From the NCBI GenBank assembly GCA_051439605.1, contig JBFRWN010000142.1:1-64000 (forward strand): a stretch of DNA of 64,000 bases, read 5' to 3'. Every line of letters starts with the position of its first letter. The first letter of the stretch is position 1. Shown here in pieces: positions 1 to 21,868 of this stretch. The translations under genes and the position numbers were made by a program. Below the pieces are notes generated by a model. The model saw only the letters and a list, made by a program, of their open reading frames with translations. It ran no database searches and was not told where the DNA came from. This stretch comes from Synechococcus sp. (lineage in GTDB: Bacteria > Cyanobacteriota > Cyanobacteriia > Thermostichales > PCC-7336).

Positions 1-10
1 GGATCCCATC

Positions 11-38
11 AAAAAAGTGCTTCCTATGGGGAAGCACT
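11..38 (-). terminator. Rho-independent terminator of psbA
   Basis: Stem AGTGCTTCC (16-24) pairs with GGAAGCACT (30-38), followed on the minus strand by a U-tract (A run at 11-16), about 30 nt after the psbA stop. Confidence 0.8.
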
Positions 39-68
39 GATATGAACAATTAATCCAGGGATAGAGAT

Positions 69-1169
69 TTAACCAATAGAAGGAGCCTCCATTGCAGTAG
101 AGATCGGAATGGCTTCGCCACTTGCCAGTCTCAAGGGGAAATGGTGCGCGTTAGGAGAGTGCATCACCTGCAATCCCATCGTTGCTCGATTAATCAGGTC
201 GGCTTCCGTACCGATGTATCGTCCGCTGCTATCCAAGATTGACCCGTTGAAATTAAACCCGTTCAAGTTGAAGGCCATAGTACCGATGCCCAGAGCGGCA
301 AACCAGATTCCGACAGTCGGTAAGGTCGCCAGCAACATGTGAATTGAGCGCTTGTTTTGGAATCCCAAACCCCGGAACACTATGCGACCGAGATACCCGT
401 AGTGGCCGGCCAACAGATTGTAGGTTTCTTCGTGCTGCCCAAAGCGGTAACCCTCATTTTCCGATACGAGATCGGAGGTTTCGCGGATCAATGACGAGGT
501 CACCAGCGAACCGTGCATGGCTGCTAGGAACGCTCCTCCGAATACACCGGCAACTCCAAGCATTGCAAACGGGTGCATCAGGATATTATGGTCGGCTTGA
601 AACGCCAGCATAAAATGAAACGTACCGGCAATCCCGAGAGGCAGTCCTTCCGAGAAAGACCCTTGGCCTATGGGATAGATCAGTAGAACTGCGATCGCCG
701 CTGCGACCGGTCCCGAGAAGGCCACAGCGATCCACGGGCGCATCCCCAGTCGGTAGGACAACTCCCACTGCCGTCCCAAATAGCAGACAATCCCAATGAG
801 AAAGTGCAGCACAATCAGCTGGTAGGGACCGCCGTTATAGAGCCACTCCTCCAGAGACGTAGCGGCCCAGACGGGATAGAAGTGCAATCCGATCGCCGCA
901 GAGGTGGGCACAACCGCCGCCGTGATGAGATTGTTGCCACCCATGAGGGAACCGATGACAGGTTCGCGAACCCCGTCCATGTCCACTGGCGGCGCACCGA
1001 TAAAGGCCAGGATAAAGCAAATGGAAGCGGCTAGCAGAGTGGGAATCATCAGCAGGCCGAACCAGCCAATGTAAAGCCGGTTTTCGGTACTGGTGACCCA
1101 CTTACAGTAACGATCCCACATGCTGCCGAGCTCAACTGGCCTGACTCGGCGTTTAGAGATAACAGTCAT
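69..1169 (-). CDS. psbA: Atypical ('rogue', group 2-like) photosystem II D1 protein
   Basis: D1 motifs [51 protein letters not shown]. In standard D1 numbering: D170E, E189D, E333S, D342R, H198A, S264G; Y161, H190, H215, H272, H332, H337 and A344 retained. Confidence 0.95.
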
Positions 1170-1336
1170 AAAGCAATCACCTCTCTCAGAAGGTCGATGA
1201 TGTTCGGTATCCAGACCGAGTGCTTAGACAAGGTTTCAAAATTCAAATCGCAGGAATTAGAAACCGATCCGTTCTAATTCCCCTCCAGCTCTCGAAGCCG
1301 TTAAACACATTGAGGCAACACAAACGATGCAAACAT

Positions 1337-1370
1337 TTAGAAAATTCGACAAGTTAGAAAATTCGACAAG
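1337..1370. repeat. Perfect 17-bp tandem direct repeat upstream of psbA
   Basis: TTAGAAAATTCGACAAG x2 (1337-1353, 1354-1370). Confidence 0.9.
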
Positions 1371-2009
1371 TCAAAATAGCAAACGCAACCTAAGCATTCG
1401 ATCCCTACAATTCATGGTAACAGAGGCAAACGTCAGCGATAACGACATCTAAATGTACGTTGACAAAAGAAACTTCTCATCGATTCGCGGATAGATAATG
1501 TAACCTAAATTGGTGGCTATACATAGTAGAATGAGAGGAGCATGAATTCATTTTAAATTGACTGCAATGGAGAACAGACCTGAAACGTAGGCCCGTCGGT
1601 CTAAGGTATTTAACGTTCGACAACAGGCAGATTTCTTCTGATTAAGAAATTTATCTTTTGATAAAGCATTTTCTCATTCAGATACCAAGAGAAAATCGTC
1701 TAGAAGTGATTTGCCTGAAATTAGGAATGCTTACGCGAATGATTCTACCTTGACAATCTATCAGTGAGTAATACAGGCAACTCGACTGGGTAAATCGAGA
1801 GAAAAAATATATCTATCACCGCACCAATTCCTGTCATAAATATTGATGTAGACCAGTGCGAGGATTGCTCTGCACCACCCCGAATGCCTAGCTTTTATAA
1901 AATTCAGTTGAAAGCAGCTCGCAAGCTGTGTACTTTAGGCAAACACTGACCTGGAGTTTGAGGCGTTCGCCCGGCGTGGCACCAGGCAATTTCCGTGCAA
2001 TACCGATGA

Positions 2010-4154
2010 TTGGGTCGCGCTATGGAATCGATCGCCCCTCTATTTCGACCTCGAACTGTGGTAGTCATTGGAGCCAGCCGCAATCCCGAGTCGATTCCCG
2101 GATGCCTGTTCGCCAACCTGCATCGATCCTTCTCGGGGGTTGTTTATCCCGTAAATCCAGCAGCTCCTCAAGTCCAGGGGGTTTCTGCCTACCCTTCAGT
2201 GTTGGAGATCTCCGGAGAGATCGACTTGGCCTTTATAGCGGTACCGGCTGACAAAGTCCTGACAGTGGCCCATCAGTGCATCGAGAAGGCGATTCCAGTC
2301 CTAGTCGTTGTCTCGGCTGGATTCTCAGAAACAGGCGAGCTCGGAGCGGCTCGGGAACGAGAGCTTGTGAGGTTGACCCGCTCTGCGGGAGTGCGCCTCC
2401 TCGGTCCCAACTGTGTTGGAGTCTTCAATACCGATCCGGCAGGACCGCTGAAGGGCATTTTTTCTCAGGTGGTAGCCATTCCAGGGAATGTCGCTCTGGG
2501 GGCGCAAAGCGGAGCCTTTGGGCTGGTGATTCCCGGAGCATTGGCGGAGCTGGGAGTAGGGATTTCCAGCTTCGTATCGCTGGGCAATAAGGCAGACATT
2601 ACCGAAAACGATCTGCTCGAGTACTGGCAAGGCGATCGGGCAACTGACTGCATTGCACTGTACCTGGAGTCCTTTCAGGAGCCTCGCAGCTTTCTTAAAA
2701 TCGCCCGCCAGGTGGCTCGCCACAGGCCCGTCGTTGTCTTGAAAGGGGGACGGACTGCTACAGGCAGGCGGGCAGCCAGCAGCCACACAGCAGCTCTGGC
2801 GAATCCGGTTACAGCTGCAGATGCATTGATGGCACAAACGGGGGTTGTACAAACCCACACCATTGAGGAGATGTACGAGGCTGCTGCGTTGCTCGCAACC
2901 CAGCCCGTTCCCTGCGGAGCGAGAGTGGCCGTCATTAGCAACGCGGGGGGACCCGCAGTGTTGTGTTCTGACGTTCTAGAGTCCGAGGGTTTGAGGGTTG
3001 TTGAGTTTTCCCCCAAACTGCGCACCCTGCTGCACCAGTTTCTGCCACCGAGAGCGAGACCTGACAATCCTCTCGATCTGGTTGCCTCGGTCGATCCGCA
3101 GCTCTATCAACAGTGTGTCGAGCGCATCCTGGCCAGTGGAGAAGTGGATGCGGCGATCGCCATTTTCGTTCCTCGGGTGTTTGGGACAGCACCCGATGTG
3201 GCTCGAGCTATTCGTACAGCAGCGACTGGCAGTTCGAAGCCGGTCTTGGCCGTCTTTGCCCAGACCGATCCTCCCCTGCAAGAGTTAAGCAGCATCGACC
3301 TCTGCGTTCCCTGCTATCGCTTTCCCGAGCCAGCGGCTGTGGCCTTAGCCCGAGCAGTCCGTTACGGTCAGTGGCGGACGCGTCCCGCAGGGCATATTCC
3401 CCAATTTAGCGACCTCCACCTCGATAAGGTTCTTCGATTGCTGACAAAGGTTCGGGAGCGTCTCGGCGATCGCGGCGGCTGGCTGGAGCCCATAGAAGTT
3501 CAGCAGGTTTTATCTGCAATCGGATTGCCGCAACCCAAGGCGGCTATAGCACTGACCGCTGACGAGGCGGTACAGGTTGCGAGGCAGTACGGCGGTCCGG
3601 TAGCCCTGAAGGTCATCTCTCCCTCAGCGATTCACAAATCGGATGTGGGGGGCGTCGCGATCGCCGTTGAAGGAGACCTTCCCGTGGAGGAAGCCTTTCG
3701 GCGAGTCACTGCTGCGGTTGCAGATGCACGGGGGGCACTTGTGCAGCAAATGGTCCCAGCGGGAGTGGAAGTTCTGATCGGCATCAATCGAGACCCTTTG
3801 TTTGGCCCGCTCGTGGCTTTTGGACTCGGCGGCACGCTGGTGGAACTATTGGAGTCCGTGGTAGTGCGGTTAGCTCCACTGACCGATCGCGATGCAGAAG
3901 AGGCGATCGCCGCAGTTCGTGGCAACAAACTGTTGGAGGGATATCGAGGAAGTCCGCCTGCTGATGTGGAAGCGGTGAAGGAGGCTTTGCTGCGGGTGTC
4001 GGCGATCGCGGAGGCAGTGCCGGAGCTGGCGGAAATGGATCTGAATCCGGTTAAGGTTTTGGCACCAGGTCAAGGAATTACGGTGGTTGACGCCCGCATC
4101 CGGCTGCAAGCGGTAGGCTTGAAAAGCTTGGCAGCCAAAGCAGGAAGAGGGTAG
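2010..4154 (+). CDS. Acetate/acyl-CoA ligase (ADP-forming), fused alpha-beta type
   Basis: CoA-binding N-terminus (VVVIGASR, YPVNP, SAGFSE, LLGPNCVG), SLGNKAD, catalytic-His motif AASSHTAALA, ATP-grasp C-terminus (HKSDVGGV, FGLGG, EMDLNP); no GNAT domain. Start TTG 2010 or ATG 2022. Confidence 0.88.
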   Translation: MGRAMESIAPLFRPRTVVVIGASRNPESIPGCLFANLHRSFSGVVYPVNPAAPQVQGVSAYPSVLEISGEIDLAFIAVPADKVLTVAHQCIEKAIPVLVVVSAGFSETGELGAARERELVRLTRSAGVRLLGPNCVGVFNTDPAGPLKGIFSQVVAIPGNVALGAQSGAFGLVIPGALAELGVGISSFVSLGNKADITENDLLEYWQGDRATDCIALYLESFQEPRSFLKIARQVARHRPVVVLKGGRTATGRRAASSHTAALANPVTAADALMAQTGVVQTHTIEEMYEAAALLATQPVPCGARVAVISNAGGPAVLCSDVLESEGLRVVEFSPKLRTLLHQFLPPRARPDNPLDLVASVDPQLYQQCVERILASGEVDAAIAIFVPRVFGTAPDVARAIRTAATGSSKPVLAVFAQTDPPLQELSSIDLCVPCYRFPEPAAVALARAVRYGQWRTRPAGHIPQFSDLHLDKVLRLLTKVRERLGDRGGWLEPIEVQQVLSAIGLPQPKAAIALTADEAVQVARQYGGPVALKVISPSAIHKSDVGGVAIAVEGDLPVEEAFRRVTAAVADARGALVQQMVPAGVEVLIGINRDPLFGPLVAFGLGGTLVELLESVVVRLAPLTDRDAEEAIAAVRGNKLLEGYRGSPPADVEAVKEALLRVSAIAEAVPELAEMDLNPVKVLAPGQGITVVDARIRLQAVGLKSLAAKAGRG

Positions 4155-4159
4155 GCGGT

Positions 4160-5848
4160 GTGAATCTCCAAGGACAAACTGTTTTAGTACTGGGGGGAGC
4201 GGGGCTGGTTGGAACCGCGGTTTGTCGCCGCCTGCTGAAAGAATCGCCAGCCCACCTCATCGTTGCAGCGGGCCATCAGGCCAGTGCGGAACGCGCGGTC
4301 AAGCTCTTGCGGACAGAGGCTTCACCGGGGGCTCGGATCGATGCCTGTTGGGGAAATATTTTTGTGCGGTGGGAGTACAAGGATTTCAGTTGGGGGGAAA
4401 TTCTGGCCGATCCCGGCAAGCGGCAGCAAGTCTTGAAAGATCTGCTCGATCCTCTGGAGAACAAGCGCAAGGACGAGATACTAGCCCAATCCACCCTGGC
4501 TCGCACGATCGCCCAATACCGACCCCACGCGATCGTCGATTGCATCAATACCGCTACCGCCTTTGCATACCAAGACGTCTACGAGAGCGCGCGCGAACTC
4601 CTGGCCTCCCTTGACGGCCCTCCCGAAACCTATCGGATGGCGGTGGAGCGGCACTTGGTCAAGATGTACACCCCCCAATTAGTCCGCCACATGCAGATTT
4701 TGTACGAGGCGCTGAGCGATGCCGACAATGACTGGCCGGGGGTTCAAGCCTACGTCAAGGTGGGAACGACGGGAACCGGCGGCATGGGATTGAATATCCC
4801 CTATACCCACGGCGAGGAGAAACCTTCGTCAGTGCTGCTCTCCAAAACTGCCGTTGCGGGAGCCCACAGCCTGCTGCTATTTCTCCTGGCTCGCACGCCG
4901 CCCGATCGCCCTGCCGTGAAAGAAATCAAGCCTGCGGCGGCGATTGGCTGGGCTGAAATCGGATACGGTCCCATTTCGCAAAAAGGACGCTCCGTTGCCC
5001 TCTACGACTGCCCGCCAGAATTGGCCTACGACCTTGCAGATGCAAGTGTTCCTACTGGCGAGTTTGGCATCGAGCTTGAGGGAAAGTCTTTGGAGAACGT
5101 CTACATCGACACTGGGGAAAACGGCCTCTATGCTCTGGCAGAGTTCTCCACACTGACGGCCCTGCGTCAGATGGAATTTATCACGGCGGAGGAGGTGGCC
5201 GAGAACGTGGTGTTGGAACTCAAAGGGGGCAATACGGGATACGACATGATTAGCGCCCTAGACCAAGCGGTACTGGGTCCCTCCTACCGAGCAGGTTGGT
5301 TGCGCGGCCAGGCGATCGCCCGCATGCAACACTTGGCTCGGGAGAAGGGGGCGCACAGCATAGCCTTCGAGGCCCTCGGTCCCCCGCGCCTCTCGAAACT
5401 ACTGTTCGAGGCGTACTTACTCCAGCAAGTGAGCCAAAACAGCATTCAACGGGTAAAGGGGATAGACCCCTTGCAGCTGGCGAGAGCCTGTTACGAGGAA
5501 CTGGTGACAGTAGGGGAGTTACGCACACAAGCGATCTCGGTGGGCATTCCCATTCTGCTTCCGGAGGGCGATCGCCTCCTGCGCGGTCCCACCATCAAAG
5601 CGGGCAAAGCAGAACAAGGCTGGATAGACTTGCGCCCCGAAAACATGCGTCTTTGGCAGGAGCGACTGGCGAAAATTTTAGAATTGGCGACTGCGGAACA
5701 ACAGGCGGATGGAGGAATGTATGCTTCCCGTTTCGATCGACTCTTTGTCGATGCCGCTACGGGTCAGATTCGAGACAGTTTTGACATCGGCACTGTTGTC
5801 GGATGGCTGTTCTCGGATGAAGAGCAGGGATTCCGTATGAAATCCTAG
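4160..5848 (+). CDS. Uncharacterised extended NAD(P)-binding Rossmann (SDR-like) protein
   Basis: N-terminal VLVLGGAGLVG dinucleotide-binding motif; 562 aa; begins 5 nt after the acyl-CoA ligase stop. Confidence 0.75.
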   Translation: MNLQGQTVLVLGGAGLVGTAVCRRLLKESPAHLIVAAGHQASAERAVKLLRTEASPGARIDACWGNIFVRWEYKDFSWGEILADPGKRQQVLKDLLDPLENKRKDEILAQSTLARTIAQYRPHAIVDCINTATAFAYQDVYESARELLASLDGPPETYRMAVERHLVKMYTPQLVRHMQILYEALSDADNDWPGVQAYVKVGTTGTGGMGLNIPYTHGEEKPSSVLLSKTAVAGAHSLLLFLLARTPPDRPAVKEIKPAAAIGWAEIGYGPISQKGRSVALYDCPPELAYDLADASVPTGEFGIELEGKSLENVYIDTGENGLYALAEFSTLTALRQMEFITAEEVAENVVLELKGGNTGYDMISALDQAVLGPSYRAGWLRGQAIARMQHLAREKGAHSIAFEALGPPRLSKLLFEAYLLQQVSQNSIQRVKGIDPLQLARACYEELVTVGELRTQAISVGIPILLPEGDRLLRGPTIKAGKAEQGWIDLRPENMRLWQERLAKILELATAEQQADGGMYASRFDRLFVDAATGQIRDSFDIGTVVGWLFSDEEQGFRMKS

Positions 5849-5878
5849 CTCATACGGCCTTGCACCCAGCCCTCTGAT

Positions 5879-6847
5879 TCAAGTCGATTGGGCGGCAGAG
5901 ATCTGAGAGACACTGACTCCTTGCTCTTCCTCTCGATCCGCTGACTGCCAGTAGGCATCGACACGTGCCTGAATCTGCGCTAGCTGCTCTTCCTGAACCG
6001 TTGGCTTGAACAAGTGGCGGAATCTGCGCTGCGGTTCCAGATACTCGCGCACTAGGTGCAGATGGCTGGGAATGTAGGTGTGCCTTACCTGACCCCGAAT
6101 CGCTTCTTTCAGCGGCCAAACCCCCGTTTCAATAGCCAGTCGGGCGATTTCGTCGCTCAGCGCTGGGTCAAACCCCCATCCAGTCGGGCAAACCGCTAAC
6201 GCAACAAATAACTTCGGCCCCCGAAAATCCATCGCTCGCCGCACTTTTTCAGCCAGGTCCACCGGCTCGTGGGAGGAAACAGTAGCAATGTAAGGGGGCT
6301 TCTGAGCTCGCCAGATCTCGAAAATATCCTTCTTGGTCTGCTGCGTCCCCTGCCGCGACGTTGCTGTTGCGGAGCCGAATGGCGAACCCGCCGAGAGTTG
6401 AAAGCCCGTATTGCCATAAGCTTCGTTATCGTAGCAGAGATACCAGAAGTTCAGCCCCCGATGGATGGCTGCCGAGGTGGAGGAGAGTCCCATGTCGTAG
6501 GTGGACCCCTCGCCAGCCAGGACCAGGACGTGCAGGGACTCTTCGGGAAGAATGCGTCCTTTGGCCAGCAGCACGTCTAGGGCATCCCGAATCCCCTGTG
6601 CCCCCGCCGAGGGACTGGCCATGGTGGTATAGAGCCAAGAGGAACGCAGTGGCGTAAAAGGGTAGATGGCCATCAGAGTCATGCAGCCAGCCGCATCCAC
6701 AATGACCACATTTTCTCCCAGGATCTTGTGCATCAACCGCAGCGTCGCCAACCCACCGCAACCGGCACAAAGTGGAGACCCCGGTGCAAGATACTCTTCC
6801 GTCGGTAGATCCTTCAAGCTCTTGTAAAATTCCCGCTTAACCTTCAC
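5879..6847 (-). CDS. porB: 2-oxoacid (pyruvate):ferredoxin oxidoreductase beta subunit, TPP-binding
   Basis: LCAGCG, AGC, TPP motif AGEGS...DNEAYGNTG, CPTGW; its GTG start overlaps the alpha-subunit stop (GTGA). Confidence 0.88.
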   Translation of the reverse strand: MKVKREFYKSLKDLPTEEYLAPGSPLCAGCGGLATLRLMHKILGENVVIVDAAGCMTLMAIYPFTPLRSSWLYTTMASPSAGAQGIRDALDVLLAKGRILPEESLHVLVLAGEGSTYDMGLSSTSAAIHRGLNFWYLCYDNEAYGNTGFQLSAGSPFGSATATSRQGTQQTKKDIFEIWRAQKPPYIATVSSHEPVDLAEKVRRAMDFRGPKLFVALAVCPTGWGFDPALSDEIARLAIETGVWPLKEAIRGQVRHTYIPSHLHLVREYLEPQRRFRHLFKPTVQEEQLAQIQARVDAYWQSADREEEQGVSVSQISAAQST

Positions 6848-8085
6848 GGTTGCTCTCCTTCCGGCCGCTTACCGGCCAGCACTAACTGCCGCTGTACCGT
6901 GTCGCGATCGCCCTCCGTAAACAGCAGCTCTGGCTGGCCGACATAGGACTCGTCTCCAACAGTCGCGAGCCGTTCCAGAACGAAATCGAATTCGGCAGGC
7001 GAGATATCTTTCCCCCCTAACCCACCAACAAAGGATCTCAACACTTTGGGGCGCTGTGGCGAGCTCGCCAGCACGGCGGCCACTTCGCGGTAGAGGATGC
7101 CCCCCAGACCCGGCGAGAGATTTTGGTCCAGCACGGCAACGGCTTGACGGCCCCCCAACACCTCAGCCAGTTCTGCCGCCGGCCAAGGGCGAATCGTGCG
7201 CAGCCGCACTAACCCCACCCGCTTGCCCTGCTCTCGCCAGCGACGGACCGCCGCCTTCCCTTTCGTGGAAAACGAGCCGGCCATGACCAGTAGAGTATCT
7301 GCATCGTCGGCATAGTAGGGGTCGATCGCGCCGTAGCGACGGCCGAACCGCTCGAAGAATTCATCAGCCACTTCTGCGTGCACCTGTGCCGCATTTTCCA
7401 CCGCCCGATGCAGCTGGTAGCGGAAATAGCTGTAGGTGGCTCCCTCCAACACGGCTACTCCCTGTGCCACAGGCTGAGAAGCGCGAAACACGGGGTGCTT
7501 TGGTTGAAAGGCAGGTAGGAAGTCTCGCACCTCGCTCTGGTCGGGTATGTCCACGGGTTCTCGAGTAAACGATAGATAGAACCCATCCAGATTCACCAAT
7601 ACGGGCACCCAAACCCTCGCGTCTTCGGCAATGCGGTAGGCCATCAGGATCGAGTCCAGGACTTCCTGACAGGTTTCTGCATGGATCTGGACGAAGCCGG
7701 TATCCCGTGCAGCCAGCACGTCATTGTGATCGGGACCGAGGGTGATTGGGGCCGACAGACCTCTGGAGACGTTCACCAGCACTAGAGGGACGTGCCAGCC
7801 CGCGATCGTGTAGAGGGCTTCCATGGCATACACCAGCCCCTGGCTGGAGGTGGCCGTGAAGGTGCGCACCCCCGTGGCCGCCGCCGCCCCAGCTGCTGTC
7901 ATCATGGAATGCTCGCTGTCGAGGGTGACGAACTTACCACTCAACGTCCCATCGGCAAACCACTCGGCCAGGGATTCGATAATCTCGGTTTGGGGGGTAA
8001 TCGGAAAGGCCGGGACGTAGTCGATGTCTGCCAGTCTGGCCCCCCAGGCAGCCGCCGCGTTACCGGTCAATAGTTTCCTCACCAT
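6844..8085 (-). CDS. porA: 2-oxoacid (pyruvate):ferredoxin oxidoreductase alpha subunit
   Basis: LTGNAAAAWG, FPITPQTEI, SEHS, TATSSQG, DGFYLS, GGLGGKD; ATG 8085 overlaps the gamma-delta stop. Confidence 0.88.
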   Translation of the reverse strand: MVRKLLTGNAAAAWGARLADIDYVPAFPITPQTEIIESLAEWFADGTLSGKFVTLDSEHSMMTAAGAAAATGVRTFTATSSQGLVYAMEALYTIAGWHVPLVLVNVSRGLSAPITLGPDHNDVLAARDTGFVQIHAETCQEVLDSILMAYRIAEDARVWVPVLVNLDGFYLSFTREPVDIPDQSEVRDFLPAFQPKHPVFRASQPVAQGVAVLEGATYSYFRYQLHRAVENAAQVHAEVADEFFERFGRRYGAIDPYYADDADTLLVMAGSFSTKGKAAVRRWREQGKRVGLVRLRTIRPWPAAELAEVLGGRQAVAVLDQNLSPGLGGILYREVAAVLASSPQRPKVLRSFVGGLGGKDISPAEFDFVLERLATVGDESYVGQPELLFTEGDRDTVQRQLVLAGKRPEGEQP

Positions 8086-8975
8086 GCCCGCACTTCCTTC
8101 TTCCTGGCGATCGCCCGCGCGGGACAGAGCGCCCAACAAATCATGCAACCCTTGCAGTGCTCGTAATCGATAATCGGGTAGCCCTCTTCGTCAAACGCGA
8201 TCGCCCCGTCCGGGCAGCGGGCGAAGCAAAGGCCGCAGCGGGTGCAGAGATCGCGATCGATCTCGGGACGCTCCACCCTCCAAGAGCCCGTTTGACGTAA
8301 CTCTGCATTGCCGGCGGTCAGAATGCTCGGCGTACTGGCCAGCAACCCTTCGTAATTGACAGGGGAGATTTTCGACCAATCGGGCACGTCTCGCGACTGC
8401 AGTTCGAGGCTGGGCAGCCCGTCGAACACCTCGCCAGCCAACGCTAAGTTTTTGGCGATCGCCTCCTGCGCAACGTGCAGGTCCTCCAGTTCTTCGCGCA
8501 CTGCATTGAGGAGGTTGTCTTGCGCGATCGCTCCCGTCAGCTTTGCCGCTGCCGCTGCCAAACCTGCACTGAGCGCTGACGCGGAACCCAGAATTTCCAG
8601 AGCGCGGTTGGTGATGTCCCAAGCGATCGCGCGCGGGCGAAGCGCGTATTTTTCCACCAGTGGGTGCGCAGACTCAGCATTCAGGAAGATCGCTCCGGCT
8701 AATTCCTGACCGGCCAGCACGCCTGCTCCCGGATCCTCCAGCAAGGTTTCATCGCCAACGACAATCAAATCCGGGCAAGCGATCGCCCCCCTTTCCAGAA
8801 TGGGCTCTTGAGCAATTCGCGTAAATGCAACGACTGCCGCGCCACGCCGCTCCGCACCGTACACAGGGGAGTCTTGAACCTGATAGCCCGCAAAGAAAGC
8901 AGCAGTACCAACAATGCGACTGGCAGTCTTGATACCGTGTCCCCCACGGCCGTGAAAACGAATTCGAATCATCAC
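8079..8975 (-). CDS. 2-oxoacid:ferredoxin oxidoreductase fused gamma-delta subunit with 2x[4Fe-4S] domain
   Basis: IRFHGRGGHG, YGAERRGA, then TGSWR...CTRCGLCFARCP and CKGCMICWALCP. Confidence 0.88.
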   Translation of the reverse strand: MMIRIRFHGRGGHGIKTASRIVGTAAFFAGYQVQDSPVYGAERRGAAVVAFTRIAQEPILERGAIACPDLIVVGDETLLEDPGAGVLAGQELAGAIFLNAESAHPLVEKYALRPRAIAWDITNRALEILGSASALSAGLAAAAAKLTGAIAQDNLLNAVREELEDLHVAQEAIAKNLALAGEVFDGLPSLELQSRDVPDWSKISPVNYEGLLASTPSILTAGNAELRQTGSWRVERPEIDRDLCTRCGLCFARCPDGAIAFDEEGYPIIDYEHCKGCMICWALCPARAIARKKEVRAW

Positions 8976-9086
8976 TTTCTCCCTGCGGGAGGGTAGACCG
9001 AGCTACCTGACCGAAGCGTATTTTGACTCCCCTATCACTATTGTAGGTTGCGACTTTGGTCGGTGGTTGCAGCGGGATCGAAGCCT

Positions 9087-9100
9087 TTGATGGCAAGCAA
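9087..9100. promoter_or_regulatory. FNR/Crp-like box in the divergent por/gdh intergenic region
   Basis: TTGAT-GGCA-AGCAA, one mismatch to TTGAT-N4-ATCAA. Confidence 0.35.
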
Positions 9101-9260
9101 AACGTTCTATTTTTTGTCAAACTCGATACATTTGGAGCGAATTCGACCAAGATAGGAATCAAGAGACTCAAGGGTCAAAATCGTACTTTGAGGCTCTCTG
9201 CAATCAGTGGGCAATAGCGCTTTCGAGACAAAACCCTCTGTCGAATTTGGAGCCTTCCAT

Positions 9261-10478
9261 ATGACGAGACTGAGAACAGATCCTGAGTTTTTTTTAACGC
9301 AAAAGCCATCTTTTAACGAACCGATGCAGACCGAAAGAGAGGTGGAGCGATCGCTGTCCGCAGACACCTCCTTCCGGTTTGCCGATGAGTTTGGACCGGC
9401 TAAGGTGAGCCACATTTACGAACCGCTCACGGGGTTAAAGGCTATTCTCGTCGTGGACAACGTAGCTTGCGGTCCATCCATTGGGGGCATCCGCATGGCA
9501 CCGGACGTCACCACCGAAGAAGTTTTTCGGCTGGCCCGAGCCATGACCCTGAAGAATGCTGCTGCCGGACTTCCCCACGGGGGTGGTAAGGCAGCTATCT
9601 TAGCCGATCCGAAGCTACCGCTATCCGACAAAGAACGGTTAATCCGTACTTTTGCCCGCGCCATTCGGGGCGTCACCGAGTACATTCCCGGCCCCAACAT
9701 GGGCACCGACGAGTGCTGCATGGCCTGGATTCAGGACGAGATTGGTCGCGCGGTCGGGCTGCCTCCAGAACTGGGTGGTATTCCCCTCGACGAGATTGGG
9801 GCAACGGGGTTCGGCCTCAGTATTTCGACAGAGGTCGCCAGCCGGTTTTGCGATCTCGACCTAAAAGGAGCCCGACTGGTGGTGCAGGGGTTCGGCTCGG
9901 TGGGCAAGCATGCTGCCCGCTTTTTACAGGAGAAAGGGGTTGTCCTGGTGGGAGCGGCAGATTCTCAAGGAACGCTGTTCGATCCCCACGGCATCGATCT
10001 CGATCGCCTGATATCGCTCAAACGTGCCGGTAAAAGCGTGGTTGACAGTCCGGCAGGGGAGAAACGCGATCGCGATGCAATTGTCGATATCGAATGCGAT
10101 ATTTGGCTACCGGCAGCCAGGCCCGATGTCATTTCTCAAGACAATGTGGCACGGTTGCAAACCAAGCTGGTGGTTCAGGGGGCAAACATTCCGTTTACGA
10201 CAGCGGCAGAGCGCATCTGTCACGAGAGGAACATTCTCATCGTCCCCGATTTCATTGCCAACGCTGGCGGCGTGATCTGTGCTGCTGTTGAGTATCGAGG
10301 GGGCACTCAAATCCTCGCCTTTCAGACCATTAAAGAGAAAGTTCGCACCAATACCGAACTCGTGTTGGAGAAAGCTGCTCGGACAGGCAAACTGCCCCGG
10401 GAGGTTGCTGTCGACCTTGCCGAACAGCGGGTCCGCACTGCAATGGGTTATCGCCACCCGATCTCTTGTGCCTTTTAA
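9261..10478 (+). CDS. Glu/Leu/Phe/Val dehydrogenase family protein
   Basis: GGIRM, LARAMTLK, GGGKA, ATGFG, VQGFGSVG, QGAN, PDFIANAGGV. Start uncertain (9207, 9261 or 9324). Confidence 0.88.
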   Translation: MTRLRTDPEFFLTQKPSFNEPMQTEREVERSLSADTSFRFADEFGPAKVSHIYEPLTGLKAILVVDNVACGPSIGGIRMAPDVTTEEVFRLARAMTLKNAAAGLPHGGGKAAILADPKLPLSDKERLIRTFARAIRGVTEYIPGPNMGTDECCMAWIQDEIGRAVGLPPELGGIPLDEIGATGFGLSISTEVASRFCDLDLKGARLVVQGFGSVGKHAARFLQEKGVVLVGAADSQGTLFDPHGIDLDRLISLKRAGKSVVDSPAGEKRDRDAIVDIECDIWLPAARPDVISQDNVARLQTKLVVQGANIPFTTAAERICHERNILIVPDFIANAGGVICAAVEYRGGTQILAFQTIKEKVRTNTELVLEKAARTGKLPREVAVDLAEQRVRTAMGYRHPISCAF

Positions 10479-10484
10479 ACGAGA

Positions 10485-11306
10485 GTGGACGTAAAACAAT
10501 CGCTCAAAGACAGAGTTATGCAGGCCATCCTCATCGATCTGGACGGTGTAATTTACCAGGGAGAGGACGTCATTCCTGGGGCTGCAGACACGATTGCCTG
10601 GCTGGCAAAGAACCGGATTCCACACCTGTACCTGACCAATACAACCTCACGTCCGCGCAGCGCCCTAGTGCAGAAGCTAGCTGGCATGGGCATTGCAATC
10701 AAAGAGCAACAAATTCTCACCCCTCCTGTCGCTGCCGCGCGATGGCTCGCCGAACATGCACCCGGTCCTGCTGCCCTGTTCGTGCCCCAGCCGACGCTGT
10801 GTGACTTTGCTTCCCTGACCCCCTTTACCGACGGGGACGATACGGCTCCTGCCAGCATCGTCGTGGGAGATTTGGGGGAAGCCTGGGACTTTGCCACTTT
10901 GAATTGTGCTTTTCGACTGTTGATGGCAAAGCCAGCTCCAGCGTTTGTGGCTTTGGGGATGACACGCTATTGGCGAGCTCCAGATGGCTTGAGACTCGAC
11001 GTTGCGCCCTTTGTGGCAGCCCTCGAGTGTGCCTCGGGGCAGCAGGCAGTTGTACTGGGGAAACCAGCGAAGTCCTTCTTTGAAGCAGCGTTACTTTCCA
11101 TCGGTTCCAGCCCATCCAACACAGTGACAATTGGCGACGATATCGTAGGCGACGTTCGAGGGGCTCAACAGGCTGGATTACAAGGCATCTTAGTTCGCAC
11201 CGGAAAATTTCTGGAAACCGATCTGCCTGGCCCCATCCAACCGGATGCCGTTCTCGATTCAATTGCACACCTGCCTTCGTGGTGGAGGCAGCAAGAAGCC
11301 ACTTAG
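10485..11306 (+). CDS. HAD-IIA hydrolase (LHPP/HDHD2-like)
   Basis: DLDGV motif I, LTNTT, LGKP, IGDDIVGDV, VRTGK; start GTG 10485 or ATG 10518. Confidence 0.85.
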   Translation: MDVKQSLKDRVMQAILIDLDGVIYQGEDVIPGAADTIAWLAKNRIPHLYLTNTTSRPRSALVQKLAGMGIAIKEQQILTPPVAAARWLAEHAPGPAALFVPQPTLCDFASLTPFTDGDDTAPASIVVGDLGEAWDFATLNCAFRLLMAKPAPAFVALGMTRYWRAPDGLRLDVAPFVAALECASGQQAVVLGKPAKSFFEAALLSIGSSPSNTVTIGDDIVGDVRGAQQAGLQGILVRTGKFLETDLPGPIQPDAVLDSIAHLPSWWRQQEAT

Positions 11307-11420
11307 CCCCGAAACGCGATTGGCACGAATTCTCCTCTAGCACTCATCTCCACGAAAAGCTCATCTTTGCTTGAGATAATAAATAAGGGACCTCTGCGAC
11401 ACTCGTTGGAGGGTGGAGAT

Positions 11421-11957
11421 ATGAATACAGCCGAACTGATGGAACAATACACTGCCGGTAAGCGAGATTTCCGGGGAATTGAAATCAGTGAATCCGAACT
11501 GAGCGGGGTGGATTTAAGAGACTCGAAACTTGACCAGTCGGATTTGCACGGTACGACTTTTATTCAGGCAAATTTGGCTGGGGTCAGCCTGAGAGCCGCC
11601 AATCTGAGCAGGGCCAACCTGAGCGAGGCGAACCTCAGAGATACCGATCTGAGAGGCAGCTACCTCAGGGATGCCATCCTGGAAGGAGCCGATCTGAACG
11701 AGGCTGACTTGTCCGATTCGTCTTTAGACGGAGCTGACTTACGAGGTAGCGATCTGGAACTGGCCGACCTGACCAATGCCAGTCTCTGCGATGCCGACCT
11801 CAGTGGAGCCAATTTGAGCGGTTCGATTTTAAATGGTGCAGATTTAATCGGTGTAGATTTACATCACGCTCATCTTGAAGGAGCTTGCTACAACAAAGAC
11901 ACGCGCTTCAATCCAAATTTTAATCCGACTACTGCCGGGCTGAATCGAGCCAACTAG
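11421..11957 (+). CDS. Pentapeptide repeat protein
   Basis: ELMEQYTAGKRDF N-terminus and tandem A(D/N)LXX repeats; SD-like GGAG before ATG 11421. Confidence 0.9.
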   Translation: MNTAELMEQYTAGKRDFRGIEISESELSGVDLRDSKLDQSDLHGTTFIQANLAGVSLRAANLSRANLSEANLRDTDLRGSYLRDAILEGADLNEADLSDSSLDGADLRGSDLELADLTNASLCDADLSGANLSGSILNGADLIGVDLHHAHLEGACYNKDTRFNPNFNPTTAGLNRAN

Positions 11958-12333
11958 TATTGGGAACAAGACAATCTGCAGGGAGACAGACGGTGGGCTC
12001 TAGTAAGGGTCTCAGCCAGAAGCTAGTCCGATGAGGGATGGCTTGTAAACAGCGGTAGTTGGATTCGCTTAACAGCCGAGAAACTTAGCAATTTCAGGTC
12101 AATGAATATTAGTTGTCGATCTCCCAATGGCAAACAAGTTGACCGTCGCAAAGTATCCATCGTGCTCGGGGTCGATCTTTCTCGGTCTGTTTCCCACCAT
12201 CAATCACTTGCAATCTTTGAACGAGATGGACAGGCAATACGTCTTACTCGTTGCGAGCGAGGGAAATCGAGTACATTTGTCTCACTCCAAAGCAACTTGA
12301 TGAAATTTTGTTTGATGAAATTGATTCGCTTGC

Positions 12334-12555
12334 TTATGCAGTAGCCCATCCAGCGATATCGAGGATGATGTTTCTCTCAAGGGTTGCTGGGGTGTGACGA
12401 CCAAAGAACTGGATGTCTGCGGGTAAGGTCGCGGGGGACTTAACCGGGCTGATGACGTTGGCCTTACGACCAAGAAATGTTGCTTGCTGTTTGGTCTCAA
12501 CGGTTTCGAATGCAGATGCTTGGCAAGCGATGCCGCGGTAGGTCAAAGAGGCCAT
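12334..12555 (-). CDS. Small DUF4278-like protein
   Basis: LTYRG N-terminal motif plus internal FLGR/FFGR repeats; GGAG upstream. Confidence 0.6.
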   Translation of the reverse strand: MASLTYRGIACQASAFETVETKQQATFLGRKANVISPVKSPATLPADIQFFGRHTPATLERNIILDIAGWATA

Positions 12556-12690
12556 GATGTCTTACTCCAGTAGTGAGTGGGCTGCGCCCTTTGCTTCGAT
12601 ATCCTCAGTATCCCGAAACCTCCGAGCAGAGAAAATCCCGAAAAGTTCAGGAGAAAGTTCAGGTTTGTTCAGGTGCTGAACGAGGATTGA

Positions 12691-12975
12691 CTATTGGGTG
12701 GAGTGGAACCGTCTTTTCTCCCTCATAGGTGTAAGTAATTGAGCTGTTGTGTCGAATGCTTTCTCCGAAGAAGTCAAGGGGGACGGGGACGTCTGAGGCT
12801 CGGTCAATTGAGGAGTTTCCCTCGTTAGAATGGGACCAACGATCGCCGTGATAATGGCTGCCACAACTGTAGCGATACCCGTAATGATGGCTACCGTCAC
12901 GGCGGGGTCTCTTTCTCTGGAAGATGTGGTCTTCTCCGGGGGTCGATCGCTTTTAGATGGTTTTTTGTCTGTCAT
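12691..12975 (-). CDS. Small single-TM hypothetical protein
   Basis: Hydrophobic stretch AVTVAIITGIATVVAAIITAIVG followed by a Pro/Thr/Ser-rich linker; GGAG upstream. Confidence 0.5.
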   Translation of the reverse strand: MTDKKPSKSDRPPEKTTSSRERDPAVTVAIITGIATVVAAIITAIVGPILTRETPQLTEPQTSPSPLTSSEKAFDTTAQLLTPMREKRRFHSTQ

Positions 12976-13108
12976 GAATCATCGCTCCAACGCTCGCTTA
13001 TAGCGAGACTGCGGTCAGGTTTGGATCGGAGTTACGCGGAAAGGGCGGGGAAGAGGTGCTGCCACTCGGAGGGCTTTATGCACATTTGACGCACCAATGA
13101 AGTACCAT

Positions 13109-13131
13109 TTGATTATAGTTACATAATTCAA
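13109..13131. promoter_or_regulatory. Imperfect inverted-repeat operator upstream of umuD
   Basis: TTGATTATAGTTACATAATTCAA, 14 nt before the umuD ATG. Confidence 0.6.
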
Positions 13132-13145
13132 ATGGATACGCCACC

Positions 13146-13748
13146 ATGAAAAATAAACACGGCGGAAAGAGGTCCGGCGCAGGGCGGCCCAAGGGGACAG
13201 GCCGCAAATTCAAAGAGCCCACCGTGGTGAAACGGATCCCCCAAAGCCGCGTACCGGAAGTTGAAGCGCTGATTTCCCAGCCCCAAGAGCAGTTGGGCAT
13301 AAATTCCAATGGGCCGAACATCAACGTGGTGGATATTCGGGTGGCTGCCCCCTCTCCTGGCAAGCAGGAACGTCCCCTGTTTGCCTCCCGAGTACCTGCA
13401 GGCTTTCCTTCTCCAGCAGATGACTATATCGAAATGCATCTCGACCTGAACGAGTATCTCGTCGACCAGCCGGCAGCCACCTATCACGTCCAAGTCAGCG
13501 GGGATTCCATGGTGGGGGCCGGAATTATGGATGGGGACATCCTGGTAGTCAACCGGTCGCAAGAGGCTGCCCACAACGCAATCGTGGTGGCGATCGTCGA
13601 TGGCGAACCCACCGTTAAACGCCTCTACTGGCAGAATTCCGACATTGAACTGCAACCGGAAAACCCCGCCTATCCGGCGATTCGGATTTCCGCAGAACAA
13701 GATTTGCAAATTTGGGGGGTGGTCACAGGTGTCGTCCGCAAACTCTAA
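13146..13748 (+). CDS. umuD: UmuD/LexA-family S24 autopeptidase with basic N-terminal extension (UmuDAb-like)
   Basis: VPAGFPSPADDY cleavage site, GDSM (Ser), TVKRL (Lys); N-terminus HGGKRSGAGRP...EPTVVKRIPQS. Confidence 0.9.
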   Translation: MKNKHGGKRSGAGRPKGTGRKFKEPTVVKRIPQSRVPEVEALISQPQEQLGINSNGPNINVVDIRVAAPSPGKQERPLFASRVPAGFPSPADDYIEMHLDLNEYLVDQPAATYHVQVSGDSMVGAGIMDGDILVVNRSQEAAHNAIVVAIVDGEPTVKRLYWQNSDIELQPENPAYPAIRISAEQDLQIWGVVTGVVRKL

Positions 13749-15018
13749 TCTCCGTTCCCGCCGCATCGCACTGGTGGACTGCAATAACTTTTACTGCTCC
13801 TGCGAACGGGTGTTTCAACCTCAATGGGCGCATCGACCGATCGCCGTTCTCAGCAATAACGACGGATGTATCGTGGCCCGCTCCAACGAACTCAAGGACC
13901 TCAAAGTCCCGATGGGGGCCCCCTACTTCAAGTGGAAGACCTTTCTCAGTCGCCACAACGCGGTGGTGGTGTCCAGCAACTACAGCCTCTACGGGGATAT
14001 GTCCGCCAGAGTGATGAGTACGTTGGGTCGCTTCACCCCCGATATGGACATCTATTCCATCGACGAGGCTTGGTTGGATCTGACCCACTTCAATCCCGCG
14101 AGTCTAGATGCCTACGGTCGGGACATCGTGCTGACCGTGAGGCAATGGACGGGCATCCCCGTCTCAATCGGCATAGCCCCCACCCGAGTCTTGGCAAAAA
14201 TTGCCAACCGCATCGCCAAGAAGCGCAAGATCTCCGGTGGGGTGTTCAACTTGGGTGGGGCCGAGCATCTAGAAGACGTTTTGGAAACGATCGCGGTGGA
14301 GGATATCTGGGGCATCGGCCGTCGCTGGGGTCGGCGCTTGCGCAGCATCGGAATCCAGTCGGCGCAAGAGTTACGGGCAGCCGATCTCGAGATGATCCGC
14401 AAGCGTTTTGGGGTGGTGATGCAGCGGATTGTGTTTGAGCTGCGAGGAATTAACTGCATCGAAGCGGAGGCGTTTGCTCCCAAACAGCAAATAATGTGTT
14501 CCCGTTCCTTCGGCCAGCGGGTGACGTCCCTGGAACACCTACGGCAGTCGGTCACGATGCATGTCAGCCGTGCGGCTGAGAAGCTGCGCTCCCAAAACTC
14601 CATTTGCGGATTGGCCCAGGTGTTTATTCGCACGGGACTGTTCAATCCACAAGAACCTACTTACAGCCAGCACGCCATCGTTCAATTCCCCGTTCCTACC
14701 TCAGATACCCGTTCTATAGCTAGTGGAGCGTTGCAGGCTCTGGATTCCATCTATCGCGAGGGATTCCGCTATGCCAAGGCAGGAGTGATTCTGATGGATC
14801 TTTCCTCATCCGAGGGGGTGCAATCGGATTTATTTCACCCTGCCGACAGCAAGCGATCGCAGGTGTTGATGCAAACGGTCGACTCCATCAATCAGAGAAT
14901 GGGACGGCGATCGGTGTTCTTTGGAGGGGAGGGGACGCAGCGGGTCTGGTTGATGAAGCGGGGGATGACGACCAAAGCCTACACCACCCGTTGGTCTGAA
15001 TTGCTGGTGGTACGGTGA
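13729..15018 (+). CDS. umuC: Y-family translesion DNA polymerase V subunit
   Basis: ALVDCNNFYCSCE, VLSNNDGC, SSNYSLYGDMS, YSIDE, IWGIG, SRSFG and C-terminal YTTRW; likely GTG start at 13729 overlapping the umuD end. Confidence 0.92.
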   Translation: MSSANSNLRSRRIALVDCNNFYCSCERVFQPQWAHRPIAVLSNNDGCIVARSNELKDLKVPMGAPYFKWKTFLSRHNAVVVSSNYSLYGDMSARVMSTLGRFTPDMDIYSIDEAWLDLTHFNPASLDAYGRDIVLTVRQWTGIPVSIGIAPTRVLAKIANRIAKKRKISGGVFNLGGAEHLEDVLETIAVEDIWGIGRRWGRRLRSIGIQSAQELRAADLEMIRKRFGVVMQRIVFELRGINCIEAEAFAPKQQIMCSRSFGQRVTSLEHLRQSVTMHVSRAAEKLRSQNSICGLAQVFIRTGLFNPQEPTYSQHAIVQFPVPTSDTRSIASGALQALDSIYREGFRYAKAGVILMDLSSSEGVQSDLFHPADSKRSQVLMQTVDSINQRMGRRSVFFGGEGTQRVWLMKRGMTTKAYTTRWSELLVVR

Positions 15019-15056
15019 CGGGTCGGGTAGCAGGCTCGTATTGCTATCCGACCCGT
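15018..15056. terminator. Hairpin between the convergent umuC and secreted-protein genes
   Basis: ACGGGTCGGGTAGCA ... TGCTATCCGACCCGT inverted repeat. Confidence 0.7.
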
Positions 15057-15066
15057 TAGAAGTCCG

Positions 15067-15651
15067 CTAGGAGCAGGAGTGGTTAACGAACACGTTCACC
15101 GTGCGGGAGTTATTTGAGGGGTTGCTATCCCCATCCGGTGTGACAGTGGCGTTGAGATCGTAGCTAAACACCTCGGGGAAATCGACGGTCGTAAATTCAA
15201 TCCAAGTGTGTTGACCGGCTGGAATGGCACTAAAGGATCGGGTGTAAGTCACATCGACAGTCGGAGCGTTGAAATAATCGGAATCGTCGATGGGTTCGGG
15301 AACTGTAAGAGTGACAGTACCGTTGGGGCCAACCGTTTCGCCGATGTTGCTGACTAAAACTCTGACGACATTATTGCAATTACCGTATTTCCAAATCCCT
15401 TGGGGACCGCTGGTGGGAGCACTGGGAGCAAACGCTTGATAGTCGTAGCCACCGCTATTGTTGAGGGGCTGAACGGTGTTGGAGCGTTGAGGTTGCCGGC
15501 GAGGGATAGTTCGCTGCACCTGTAATTGGGAACCTTGGCGCAGGGATTGGGTAGAGAGGAAAGGACGGGCTTGGACGATGGGAGTAGCTAAGAGGCTCAA
15601 ACCAATAAAGGCGAAAACCTTAGATGCGGTGGAGTGGAAGGTCACGGTCAA
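15067..15651 (-). CDS. Secreted hypothetical protein with CARDB/Ig-like C-terminus
   Basis: Signal peptide (FAFIGLSLLATPIVQA), VSNIG, and a C-terminal DSNPSNNS motif. Confidence 0.6.
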   Translation of the reverse strand: MTVTFHSTASKVFAFIGLSLLATPIVQARPFLSTQSLRQGSQLQVQRTIPRRQPQRSNTVQPLNNSGGYDYQAFAPSAPTSGPQGIWKYGNCNNVVRVLVSNIGETVGPNGTVTLTVPEPIDDSDYFNAPTVDVTYTRSFSAIPAGQHTWIEFTTVDFPEVFSYDLNATVTPDGDSNPSNNSRTVNVFVNHSCS

Positions 15652-15865
15652 TCTCTCAGAAACTTCATGAATTCAGCCTATTTCGACCGCCCACAGAACT
15701 CAGCGATCGCAATCTACAGCCGCCTGCGATCGCGATCGCTTGACCTCAATTGAGAAGATTGGCCCGTTGAGCTTGAAGGAGAAGAAGAATGAAAACCATC
15801 GATTTAGACGGCATGTAACTTCTCGATGGATTGCGCTGACATGGGGGGTCTTCAGAGGGTAAGAA

Positions 15866-15950
15866 AGGCAACGATTCTGGCGAATGAAGCAGAGGATGAC
15901 GACGCCAAGCCTACACAACTCGCTGATCTGAACTGCTGGTGGTACGGTGA
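15866..15950 (+). pseudogene. Decayed second copy of the umuC 3' end
   Basis: 15884-15950 aligns to 14953-15018 with about 8 mismatches, a 1-nt insertion and TGG->TGA; reads ...WRMKQRMTT/QAYTTR*SELLVVR*. Confidence 0.85.
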
Positions 15951-15984
15951 GCGATGTGTCACCTATCCATGTGGAGTGAAGCCA

Positions 15985-16656: not shown

Positions 16657-16745
16657 GGCTATTACATAGAGGGTGAACGAAACCGGAAGAATCCATATAT
16701 GGCAAAGCGATAGCGATAGCCTTGGCGCAGTTTCCTGTCCTAAAA

Positions 16746-17378: not shown

Positions 17379-17503
17379 GTTAAAACACTCAAACAAATCA
17401 GATAAATCATGAAAGAAGGAACGGAACATCGAACATTGTGTGAACGCCCCAAACCGATACAATCCAATATAAGCCAATTAAATAAAGCCCAATTTTCACC
17501 TCT

Positions 17504-21830: not shown

Positions 21831-21858
21831 GCGCCTGAAGTTGTCTAACTTCAGGCGC
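21831..21858. terminator. Hairpin immediately downstream of the DUF4347-lyase gene
   Basis: GCGCCTGAAGTT-GTCT-AACTTCAGGCGC, perfect 12-bp stem. Confidence 0.7.
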
Positions 21859-21868
21859 AGCAGAGCTA

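Follow-up and report, generated by a model that had tools for sequence, protein, structure and literature searches.

Genes encoding Group 2 (rogue) D1 proteins are induced in the dark in several species, including some in which nitrogenase is absent, according to section 13 of PMC4408414, a section that also makes such genes known from non-diazotrophs. In Cyanothece, the dark changes of photosystem II (PSII) proceed after deletion of psbA4, and the PsbA4 protein is scarce, as described in an excerpt of PMC9640542. Variants of psbA near sqr have been noted in a part of PMC5061849. Fermentation in cyanobacteria is usually described as a route from glycogen to pyruvate that employs NifJ, acetate kinase, and Hox. 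Peptide fermentation in Thermococcales combines aminotransferases or glutamate dehydrogenase (GDH), the pyruvate, 2-ketoisovalerate, indolepyruvate, and 2-ketoglutarate:ferredoxin oxidoreductases (POR, VOR, IOR, and KGOR), and the ADP-forming acyl-CoA synthetases I and II. In a Synechococcus sp., a Group 2 psbA lies beside a 9.3-kb cassette of predicted fermentation genes, at positions 69–11306 of the window, which is the analysed stretch of 64,000 nucleotides at the start of contig C142 (98,008 bp) in a metagenome-derived assembly (4.9 Mb, 143 contigs, 99.98% complete, 4.12% contaminated). It is likely that the psbA is resident, that the cassette, predicted to ferment 2-oxoacids, was acquired, and that their adjacency is an accident of insertion rather than a sign of shared control.

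The psbA–cassette locus and its linkage

The eight genes of the locus lie where an earlier note on this DNA had placed them, and the evidence from open reading frames (ORFs), Pfam, and NCBIfam agrees. The psbA gene (69–1169, minus strand; TIGR01151, 617.6 bits, cut-off 596) encodes 366 residues and is separated by an AT-rich divergent intergenic region (1170–2021) from a gene on the plus strand for an ADP-forming acyl-CoA ligase, an alpha-beta fusion identified by Pfam, which starts at a TTG at 2010 or an ATG at 2022 and ends at 4154. The gap of 840 bp reported previously is right to the TTG, and becomes 852 bp to the ATG, which is the start used by the two closest homologues. The gene of a 562-residue Rossmann/SDR-fold protein of family PF27054 (4160–5848, plus strand) starts 5 bp past the ligase. 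The 2-oxoacid:ferredoxin oxidoreductase is encoded on the minus strand by porB (beta subunit, 5879–6847) and porA (alpha subunit, ORF 6844–8148, likely start 8085), both identified by family models, and by a fused porC-porD (gamma-delta, 8079–8975) that has two 4Fe-4S motifs and scores above the cut-offs of TIGR02175 and TIGR02179. A second divergent intergenic region (8976–9323, with the dehydrogenase inferred to start at 9324) leads on the plus strand to a gene of the Glu/Leu/Phe/Val dehydrogenase family (ORF 9207–10478; Pfam and residues) and to that of a HAD-IIA hydrolase (10485–11306; TIGR01458, 189.3 bits, cut-off 176). The orientation of the genes, which is absent from the earlier note, places por convergent with the ligase–Rossmann pair and divergent from the dehydrogenase–HAD pair. 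The stretch 69–11306 therefore cannot be a single operon; it comprises four or more transcription units, with divergent regions at 1170–2021 and 8976–9323.

The adjacency of psbA and the cassette is seen beyond a single assembly. Thirteen public runs, all recorded as marine sediment metagenomes, share words with the window; six of them were compared in detail, and runs with only small shares were set aside. In run X1, possibly the origin of the assembly, every one of the 30 bins has a read depth of 34–43x. Contigs of runs X2, X6, and X4, from three studies, tile positions 981–1316, 1303–1453, 1412–1569, and 1546–2222 with strain-level differences, and no single one of these contigs reaches from psbA to the ligase. 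Because of the even depth, the overlapping contigs from other studies, and the sites of the cyanobacterial repeat HIP1 throughout the cassette, a chimeric junction is unlikely. At position 9992, a third codon position of the dehydrogenase gene, contigs of X1, X2, and X4 have A and the window has C, which is likely an assembly error or a minor allele.

The linkage of the two parts is not conserved. None of 26 Group 2 psbA loci from 26 other genomes has a ligase, PF27054 reductase, por, or HAD gene nearby. Of these loci, 16 came from an orthologue search, 1 was further added, and 9 were found among 231 genomes by a motif search that misses variants with other residues; upstream sequence is at least 8.9 kb long for 22 of the 26 and shorter for four. 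A GDH-family gene stands near one of the 26 (29% identity), the one weak ligase match (E 6e-6) is a carbamoyl-phosphate synthase, and the gene neighbours, scanned as 55 selected ORFs, are mixed across loci. Seen from the cassette, 79 non-cyanobacterial por loci include a ligase in 32 cases and a dehydrogenase in 6, and psbA, the reductase, and HAD in none. Among the 80 loci of the P0125 metagenome scan, none belongs to the close clade, none has psbA or cassette-type por, and four have weak por-domain matches.

The sole other cyanobacterial genome found with the cassette is G764, which encodes a protein source-labelled as a Leptolyngbyaceae metagenome-assembled genome. Its contig C445 carries porCD-porA-porB, three inserted genes, the ligase, and the start of the reductase at the contig end; the remaining part of the reductase sits at one end of C430, and C140 carries a sister dehydrogenase (77–79% identity). 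The best match to HAD is 39% identical and on another contig; neither this nor the 79 por loci mark HAD-IIA as part of a conserved cassette. In G764 the Group 2 psbA sits on C385, where an FTR1 permease gene and an ATPase operon adjoin it, and the 15.9 kb read there (9.5 kb upstream and 5.2 kb downstream of psbA) contain no cassette genes. Taken together with the 26 Group 2 loci and the 79 por loci, the separate contigs of G764 mean that the linkage exists, among the genomes sampled, in this genome only. The synteny survey proposed in the earlier note thus turned out against its view of one co-regulated locus, as did the number of transcription units.

The window psbA is a resident gene, because orthologues with 84–85% identity are present in congeners G001 and G002. 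In G001, the same psbA lies 2.5–3.5 kb from ureB and its neighbour, whereas in the window this anchor (24826–25708) is about 24 kb away. The difference suggests that the cassette was inserted upstream of the resident psbA, which is the simplest reading.

The D1 encoded in the window is by its sequence a Group 2 protein. It differs from the standard D1 of the same genome by D170E, E189D, E333S, R334P, D342R, S264G, E329Q, and H198A, and it carries a one-residue insertion near 253; Y161, H190, H215, H252, H272, H332, H337, and A344 are unchanged (H332 and S333 are residues 337 and 338 in its own numbering). The earlier description of a psbA without Mn-cluster ligands holds for D170E, E189D, E333S, and D342R, and not for H332, H337, and A344, which are kept. 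Group 2 is recognised by A, S, or G at 333 with H332 kept, by usually E at 170, usually D at 189, usually P at 334, and a non-liganding residue, here R, at 342, and by an insertion near G253 with H252 kept and A or G at 264, all of which the window D1 has. In the residues given in part of PMC4408414 it resembles Group 2 proteins such as PsbA4 of Cyanothece ATCC 51142 (E170, D189, H332, S333, P334, N335, Q329, E65, H252 with the one-residue insertion, G264, N298, and N322), and it departs from those listed there by Arg342, Ala198, and a retained E244. Group 1 D1/ChlF, in which, according to the same part, H332 and H252 are absent, W occupies 256, and N298 and N322 are changed, is rejected since the window D1 has H332, H252, G256, N298, and N322. 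It is predicted not to make oxygen. The chlorophyll ligand of P_D1, H198 (own residue 202), is Ala in the window, Gln in the congeners, and Ser in most aligned relatives of the same order; its loss fits a sub-lineage described in part of PMC4408414 for early-branching Synechococcus.

A second Group 2 psbA of the genome (contig C121, 15491–16588; L259:3492–4589) shares 70% identity with the copy in the window; H198 is retained in it, and positions 333 and 342 are A333 and V342. It adjoins ccmP and a pentapeptide-repeat gene, and cassette genes are absent there. What the earlier note stated for the window, that nif genes are absent, holds for the entire assembly, in which neither nifD nor nifH reaches its family cut-off. 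Unlike the known case of PsbA4, two Group 2 copies are thus found in a genome without nif genes, which joins the known cases where protection of nitrogenase cannot be the reason for the rogue D1.

Group 2 psbA lies at or near a second ATPase operon in two of the 26 loci. In G002 the operon is of the V/A type (L120:15514–20000 and L121:1–3010); in G764 (L225:10052–15690) it is of the F type with a Na/H exchanger, presumably an N-ATPase. In G054 (L229:7323–12765) and G990 (L231:7360–12619), which belong to one family, Group 2 psbA and a further psbA variant form a tandem pair, after which come genes for a 4Fe-4S protein and an SQR-like flavoprotein (Pyr_redox_2).

Rarity, origin, and age of the cassette

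The components of the cassette are rare in cyanobacteria. The porB gene is found in none of 400 other genomes of the phylum at E 1e-30, the ligase clade in none of 400 genomes of the class at E 1e-150, and the reductase in 2 of 400 genomes, both outside the class, with 46–48% identity; the phylum, class, and family samples overlap one another. Searches for porA at the family level gave 0 of 71 and 1 of 173 genomes, the one being G764. Among 40 relatives, 11 have porA matches at 30–34% identity, and 10 of the 11 lie in frames of 1219–1311 residues, that is, in NifJ. The earlier note was therefore right that a split oxidoreductase is unusual in this phylum. The plasmid collection contains no close porA (40 records, all below 60%) and no reductase. 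No description of a split oxidoreductase with an ADP-forming ligase in cyanobacteria, or of its link to Group 2 psbA, was found in a literature search that left subscription journals mostly outside, and annotation tables could list the genes. Among cyanobacteria, the cassette is a rare and apparently undescribed form of a known fermentation chemistry.

The GC content of the cassette is 58.1%, compared with a mean of 51.4%, a level reached by 0.4% of 452 windows, and its tetranucleotides are atypical. In a quick tree of 45 porA rows, the window sequence groups with P0246–P0250 with a support of 99, among rows from Planctomycetota, Verrucomicrobiota, and Nitrospirota; only P0249 bears a cyanobacterial label, and the tree does not single out a donor. 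The por phylogeny that the earlier note called for, which like all porA trees here is a quick one, thus sets this oxidoreductase apart from NifJ. Descent from a cyanobacterial NifJ by splitting is rejected, as a clade of the window porA, the G764 porA, and three cyanobacterial NifJ rows has a p-AU of 2.6e-42. The reductase is found in none of five por-carrying non-cyanobacterial genomes, and the full set is therefore not shown to derive from one donor. On this evidence of composition and phylogeny, the cassette was likely acquired horizontally.

The acquisition was not recent. The cassette contains 16 sites of HIP1 (GCGATCGC), or 1.72 per kb versus 0.86 per kb genome-wide, and 14 selected por regions from outside cyanobacteria contain 5 in 46.2 kb. 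HIP1 is enriched in most cyanobacteria, as stated in a part of PMC3497702. Between the window and G764, the cassette genes have dN of 0.11–0.25 and dS that is at least 2 or saturated, which marks them, as judged from substitutions, as old and under purifying selection. Sequence comparison thus shows a cassette that is closest to planctomycete, verrucomicrobial, and Nitrospirota enzymes and has long been resident in a HIP1-type genome. An old, selected cassette in two cyanobacterial families would widen cyanobacterial fermentation to other 2-oxoacids.

Predicted enzymes and chemistry

The oxidoreductase has alpha, beta (thiamine pyrophosphate (TPP) and 4Fe-4S), gamma, and 2x4Fe-4S delta modules, and the substrate-site Thr, Glu, and Arg are conserved in the alpha subunit. 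It passes no equivalog cut-off for POR, VOR, IOR, or the 2-oxoglutarate enzyme OOR; the alpha subunit scores 395.9 bits with PorA (cut-off 550), 295.7 with VOR (646), 273.2 with OOR (500), and 38.7 with IOR (650.9). Among solved structures, oxalate oxidoreductase 5c4i and the pyruvate:ferredoxin oxidoreductase (PFOR) 9bt4 are nearest to it. It shares with these and with POR and VOR of Pyrococcus and Thermotoga separate alpha and beta subunits, gamma and ferredoxin-like delta modules, and conserved Cys and substrate-site residues. Unlike four-subunit-type enzymes, it has fused gamma and delta, misses the equivalog cut-offs, and reads GEG in the TPP/Mg motif of porB (6509–6511), which is GDG in 75 of 75 non-cyanobacterial homologues and in G764. 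The GEG reading is matched in run X1 only, maybe the assembly source. Glu is tolerated at this position in some TPP enzymes. Members of the subfamily occur in Planctomycetota, Verrucomicrobiota, Nitrospira, Scalindua, and Nitrososphaerota. A single-chain PFOR of the NifJ type (about 1200 residues) is excluded by the three ORFs and by a TIGR02176 score of 138 bits against a cut-off of 911. Cyanobacterial NifJ belongs to the same superfamily, with about 29% identity over the alpha region, but the window enzyme differs in its split subunits and separate ancestry.

The ligase contains CoA_binding, Succ_CoA_lig, and ATP-grasp_5 domains and no GNAT domain, and scores below all NCBIfam equivalog cut-offs. 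H254 and H537, which we take to be the catalytic phospho-His positions, are invariant in eight of eight aligned sequences, and the enzyme is by its domains of the ADP-forming acyl-CoA synthetase type.

The gene product called a Rossmann protein in the earlier note indeed has this fold; its model (pLDDT 85.7) has an N-terminal domain that matches SDR-like folds. The description can be refined to family PF27054 (Beta_methylindole_red_C; Atlas score 0.99), the precomputed Pfam label on all 120 hits listed. The Pfam name is presumably tied to Ind2. From the family name and gene context, we infer that the protein is a predicted Ind2-like 2-oxoacid reductase; its gene directly follows that of the ligase in G764 too. 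Ind2 is an NADH-dependent reductase of 3-methyl-indolepyruvate in indolmycin synthesis, according to a part of PMC8246080, with which the window protein shares the family label and the SDR-like N-terminal fold. Unlike the setting of Ind2, the window is without indolmycin-type genes. Among 121 genomes of a planctomycete's phylum there are four PF27054 matches, and three of the four have a same-strand aminotransferase upstream, one adjacent and two within 1.4–2.5 kb. Through the cassette, the large PF27054 family gains a testable role in primary metabolism.

The family of the amino-acid dehydrogenase was correctly named before, but it is not of the glutamate type. It reads GPSIGG and NAGGVICA, compared with GPAKGG and NAGGVTVS in Thermotoga GDH 2tmg; the Lys and Ser replaced by Ile and Ala (K89 and S380) are those that presumably bind the glutamate gamma-carboxylate, and identity as a glutamate dehydrogenase is rejected. 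Asn164 (9696–9698) stands in place of the catalytic Asp, which we assume to be D165 in Clostridium numbering. G764 also has Asn, whereas the remaining 10 of 12 subfamily rows have Asp; because the window and G764 share it, the Asn is not an assembly error. The dehydrogenase may be altered, regulatory, or non-catalytic, and the step from amino acid to 2-oxoacid claimed in the earlier note is doubtful. An intact paralogue on contig C46 follows indolepyruvate/phenylpyruvate-decarboxylase-like and aldehyde dehydrogenase genes, both below cut-off. The three in a row (C46, 58262–62644; L257) resemble an Ehrlich-type, possibly auxin-forming, cluster, and the aldehyde dehydrogenase–dehydrogenase pair is also present in three congeners. 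In G764, the cassette region (L224:863–12671) runs on to xanthine-dehydrogenase-like genes, a D-2-hydroxyacid dehydrogenase, an M20 peptidase, and a gamma-glutamyltranspeptidase, and the dehydrogenase lies near an adenine deaminase, in a wider context of nitrogen-compound catabolism.

The gene identities make an anaerobic substrate-level route to ATP, as claimed before, plausible. The split oxidoreductase would convert a 2-oxoacid and CoA to acyl-CoA, CO2, and reduced ferredoxin, and the ligase would convert acyl-CoA, ADP, and phosphate to the acid and ATP. The Ind2-like reductase would turn a second 2-oxoacid into a 2-hydroxyacid and so re-oxidise NAD(P)H, and electrons of ferredoxin could pass to the Hox hydrogenase encoded elsewhere. 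If the dehydrogenase is altered or non-catalytic, aminotransferases or the intact C46 paralogue could supply the 2-oxoacids. Hox, including hoxH, is encoded elsewhere in the genome. As NifJ (on C46) and two copies of the acetate kinase gene ackA are also encoded elsewhere, the cassette likely ferments non-pyruvate 2-oxoacids. The residues of the dehydrogenase, the neighbours on C46, the PF27054 label, and the aminotransferases upstream of PF27054 genes point likewise to a hydrophobic (aromatic or branched) 2-oxoacid as the likely substrate rather than pyruvate. They favour an oxidative branch, yielding acid and ATP, that would be balanced by a reductive branch, yielding a 2-hydroxyacid, both acting on hydrophobic skeletons. 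As in Thermococcales, a split oxidoreductase and an ADP-forming acyl-CoA synthetase could give acid and ATP. By contrast, there is only one oxidoreductase, the dehydrogenase is of a non-glutamate type without the catalytic Asp, an Ind2-like reductase is added, and the closest relatives of the cassette are bacterial, not from Thermococcales.

Regulation and competing readings

The psbA–ligase intergenic region (1170–2021) is conserved with a congener only over about 35 bp beside psbA, and it includes a 17-nt tandem duplication (1337–1370). Scans for promoters and terminators gave counts no higher than in shuffled sequences (11 terminator-like sites in total versus 12.7), and the terminator-like hairpin 3' of psbA near the contig end (16–38, minus strand) is a consensus match only. 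Ten upstream regions yielded no shared motif, in a test that is weak, and only scattered short matches to the patterns of NtcA, CRP/FNR, LexA, Rre1, and RpaB. An Rfam scan of positions 1–20000 gave no matches. RNA run X12 yielded 12 contigs, which fall on psbA and on scattered pieces of the cassette and reach 8 of the 30 bins; contigs give no measure of expression level or co-induction. Both psbA and the cassette may be expressed at night, each from its own promoter.

Several points weigh against an accidental adjacency with a non-pyruvate fermentation. G002 does not keep psbA near ureB, and synteny in the genus is generally poor. The G764 assembly is fragmented (83% complete, about 650 contigs), with C445 ending about 400 bp past the porCD start, and 12 of the 26 Group 2 loci come from a single genus. 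Co-option specific to one lineage would likewise look unconserved. Two long contigs, one of 82,831 bp with ligase, reductase, and porA, and one of 307,781 bp with ligase and porA, probably carry further copies, as their matching lengths suggest; neither was read, and they are the main gap in the case against linkage. The best score of the alpha subunit is with the pyruvate synthase model, ahead of the ketoisovalerate model and with both below cut-off, which does not favour a non-pyruvate substrate. The change of Asp to Asn and the GEG motif could mean that the enzymes are impaired.

An alternative that we regard as unlikely is that the cassette works in reverse in anoxic light: the ligase would activate organic acids of the sediment, and the oxidoreductase would carboxylate acyl-CoA with ferredoxin reduced by photosystem I, giving 2-oxoacids and amino acids by photo-assimilation. 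The enzyme family is reversible according to an excerpt of PMC13768988, and the POR of Nitrospira marina that rises at low O2 is proposed to fix CO2 in a part of PMC8115632. Nitrospira, Scalindua, and Nitrososphaerota, in which close relatives are found, are autotrophic, and in L011 and L014 por has AMP-binding (AMP-forming-type) ligases at its flanks. However, acid release is the usual direction of ADP-forming ligases, an electron-sink role suits a 2-oxoacid reductase better, and the Asn in place of the catalytic Asp speaks against ordinary reductive amination.

The reading of the earlier note, in which the divergent region would control rogue D1 and the cassette jointly in the dark or without oxygen, is improbable. 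Water oxidation would then be shut off during the formation of fermentative ATP by the O2-sensitive oxidoreductase, and selection, within this lineage at least, would maintain the adjacency. The head-to-head layout is seen in strains from three studies, the genome has no nitrogenase, and Group 2 psbA is near alternative ATPase operons in G002 and G764. The dark induction of Group 2 psbA in several species, also without nitrogenase (PMC4408414, section 13), would fit, as would, should it be of the same subfamily, the four-subunit-type POR of N. marina with its low-O2 rise (PMC8115632, in part). Against these stand the unconserved linkage at 26 Group 2 loci, at 79 por loci, and in G764, the lack of a motif common to the ten upstream regions, the second rogue psbA on C121, and, as far as the excerpt of PMC9640542 goes, dark PSII changes in Cyanothece that are independent of a scarce PsbA4. 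The por operon, moreover, is driven from an intergenic region about 7 kb away from the one shared with psbA. PSII evolves no O2 in darkness anyway. Quite improbable, too, is a more specific case. In it, night-time fermentation of aromatic or branched amino-acid skeletons would occur in a few benthic cyanobacteria with the borrowed cassette, whose reductase would serve as electron sink, and in this non-diazotrophic lineage one dark or anoxia control region would have kept the cassette head-to-head with rogue D1. Under shared control, rogue D1 would protect fermentation enzymes rather than nitrogenase. The neighbourhoods of Group 2 psbA give no general support for a fermentation partnership, and the coupling of the cassette to rogue D1 is probably incidental. 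What the earlier note observed is thus confirmed and its interpretation partly supported, whereas the joint module is not supported.

It is very improbable that the cassette came from some non-cyanobacterial organism of the sediment through contamination or mis-assembly: the metagenome origin and 4.12% contamination of the assembly, the high GC and atypical tetranucleotides, and the psbA–ligase span that no single independent contig holds are outweighed by even depth, the contigs of other studies that overlap there, a HIP1 density twice the genome average, and a sister cassette in a second cyanobacterial genome.

Directly after the cassette, and thus in the stretch between psbA and ureB, umuD, umuC, and SRAP genes (13146–16656) are of a kind typical of variable or mobile regions. 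Two genes with polysaccharide-lyase domains, one of which also has a DUF4347 and a CBM6 domain, lie at 20374–23653 within the psbA–ureB interval. Farther along the window, a 1274-residue ORF at 38595–42419 has no Pfam match and a strong base skew.

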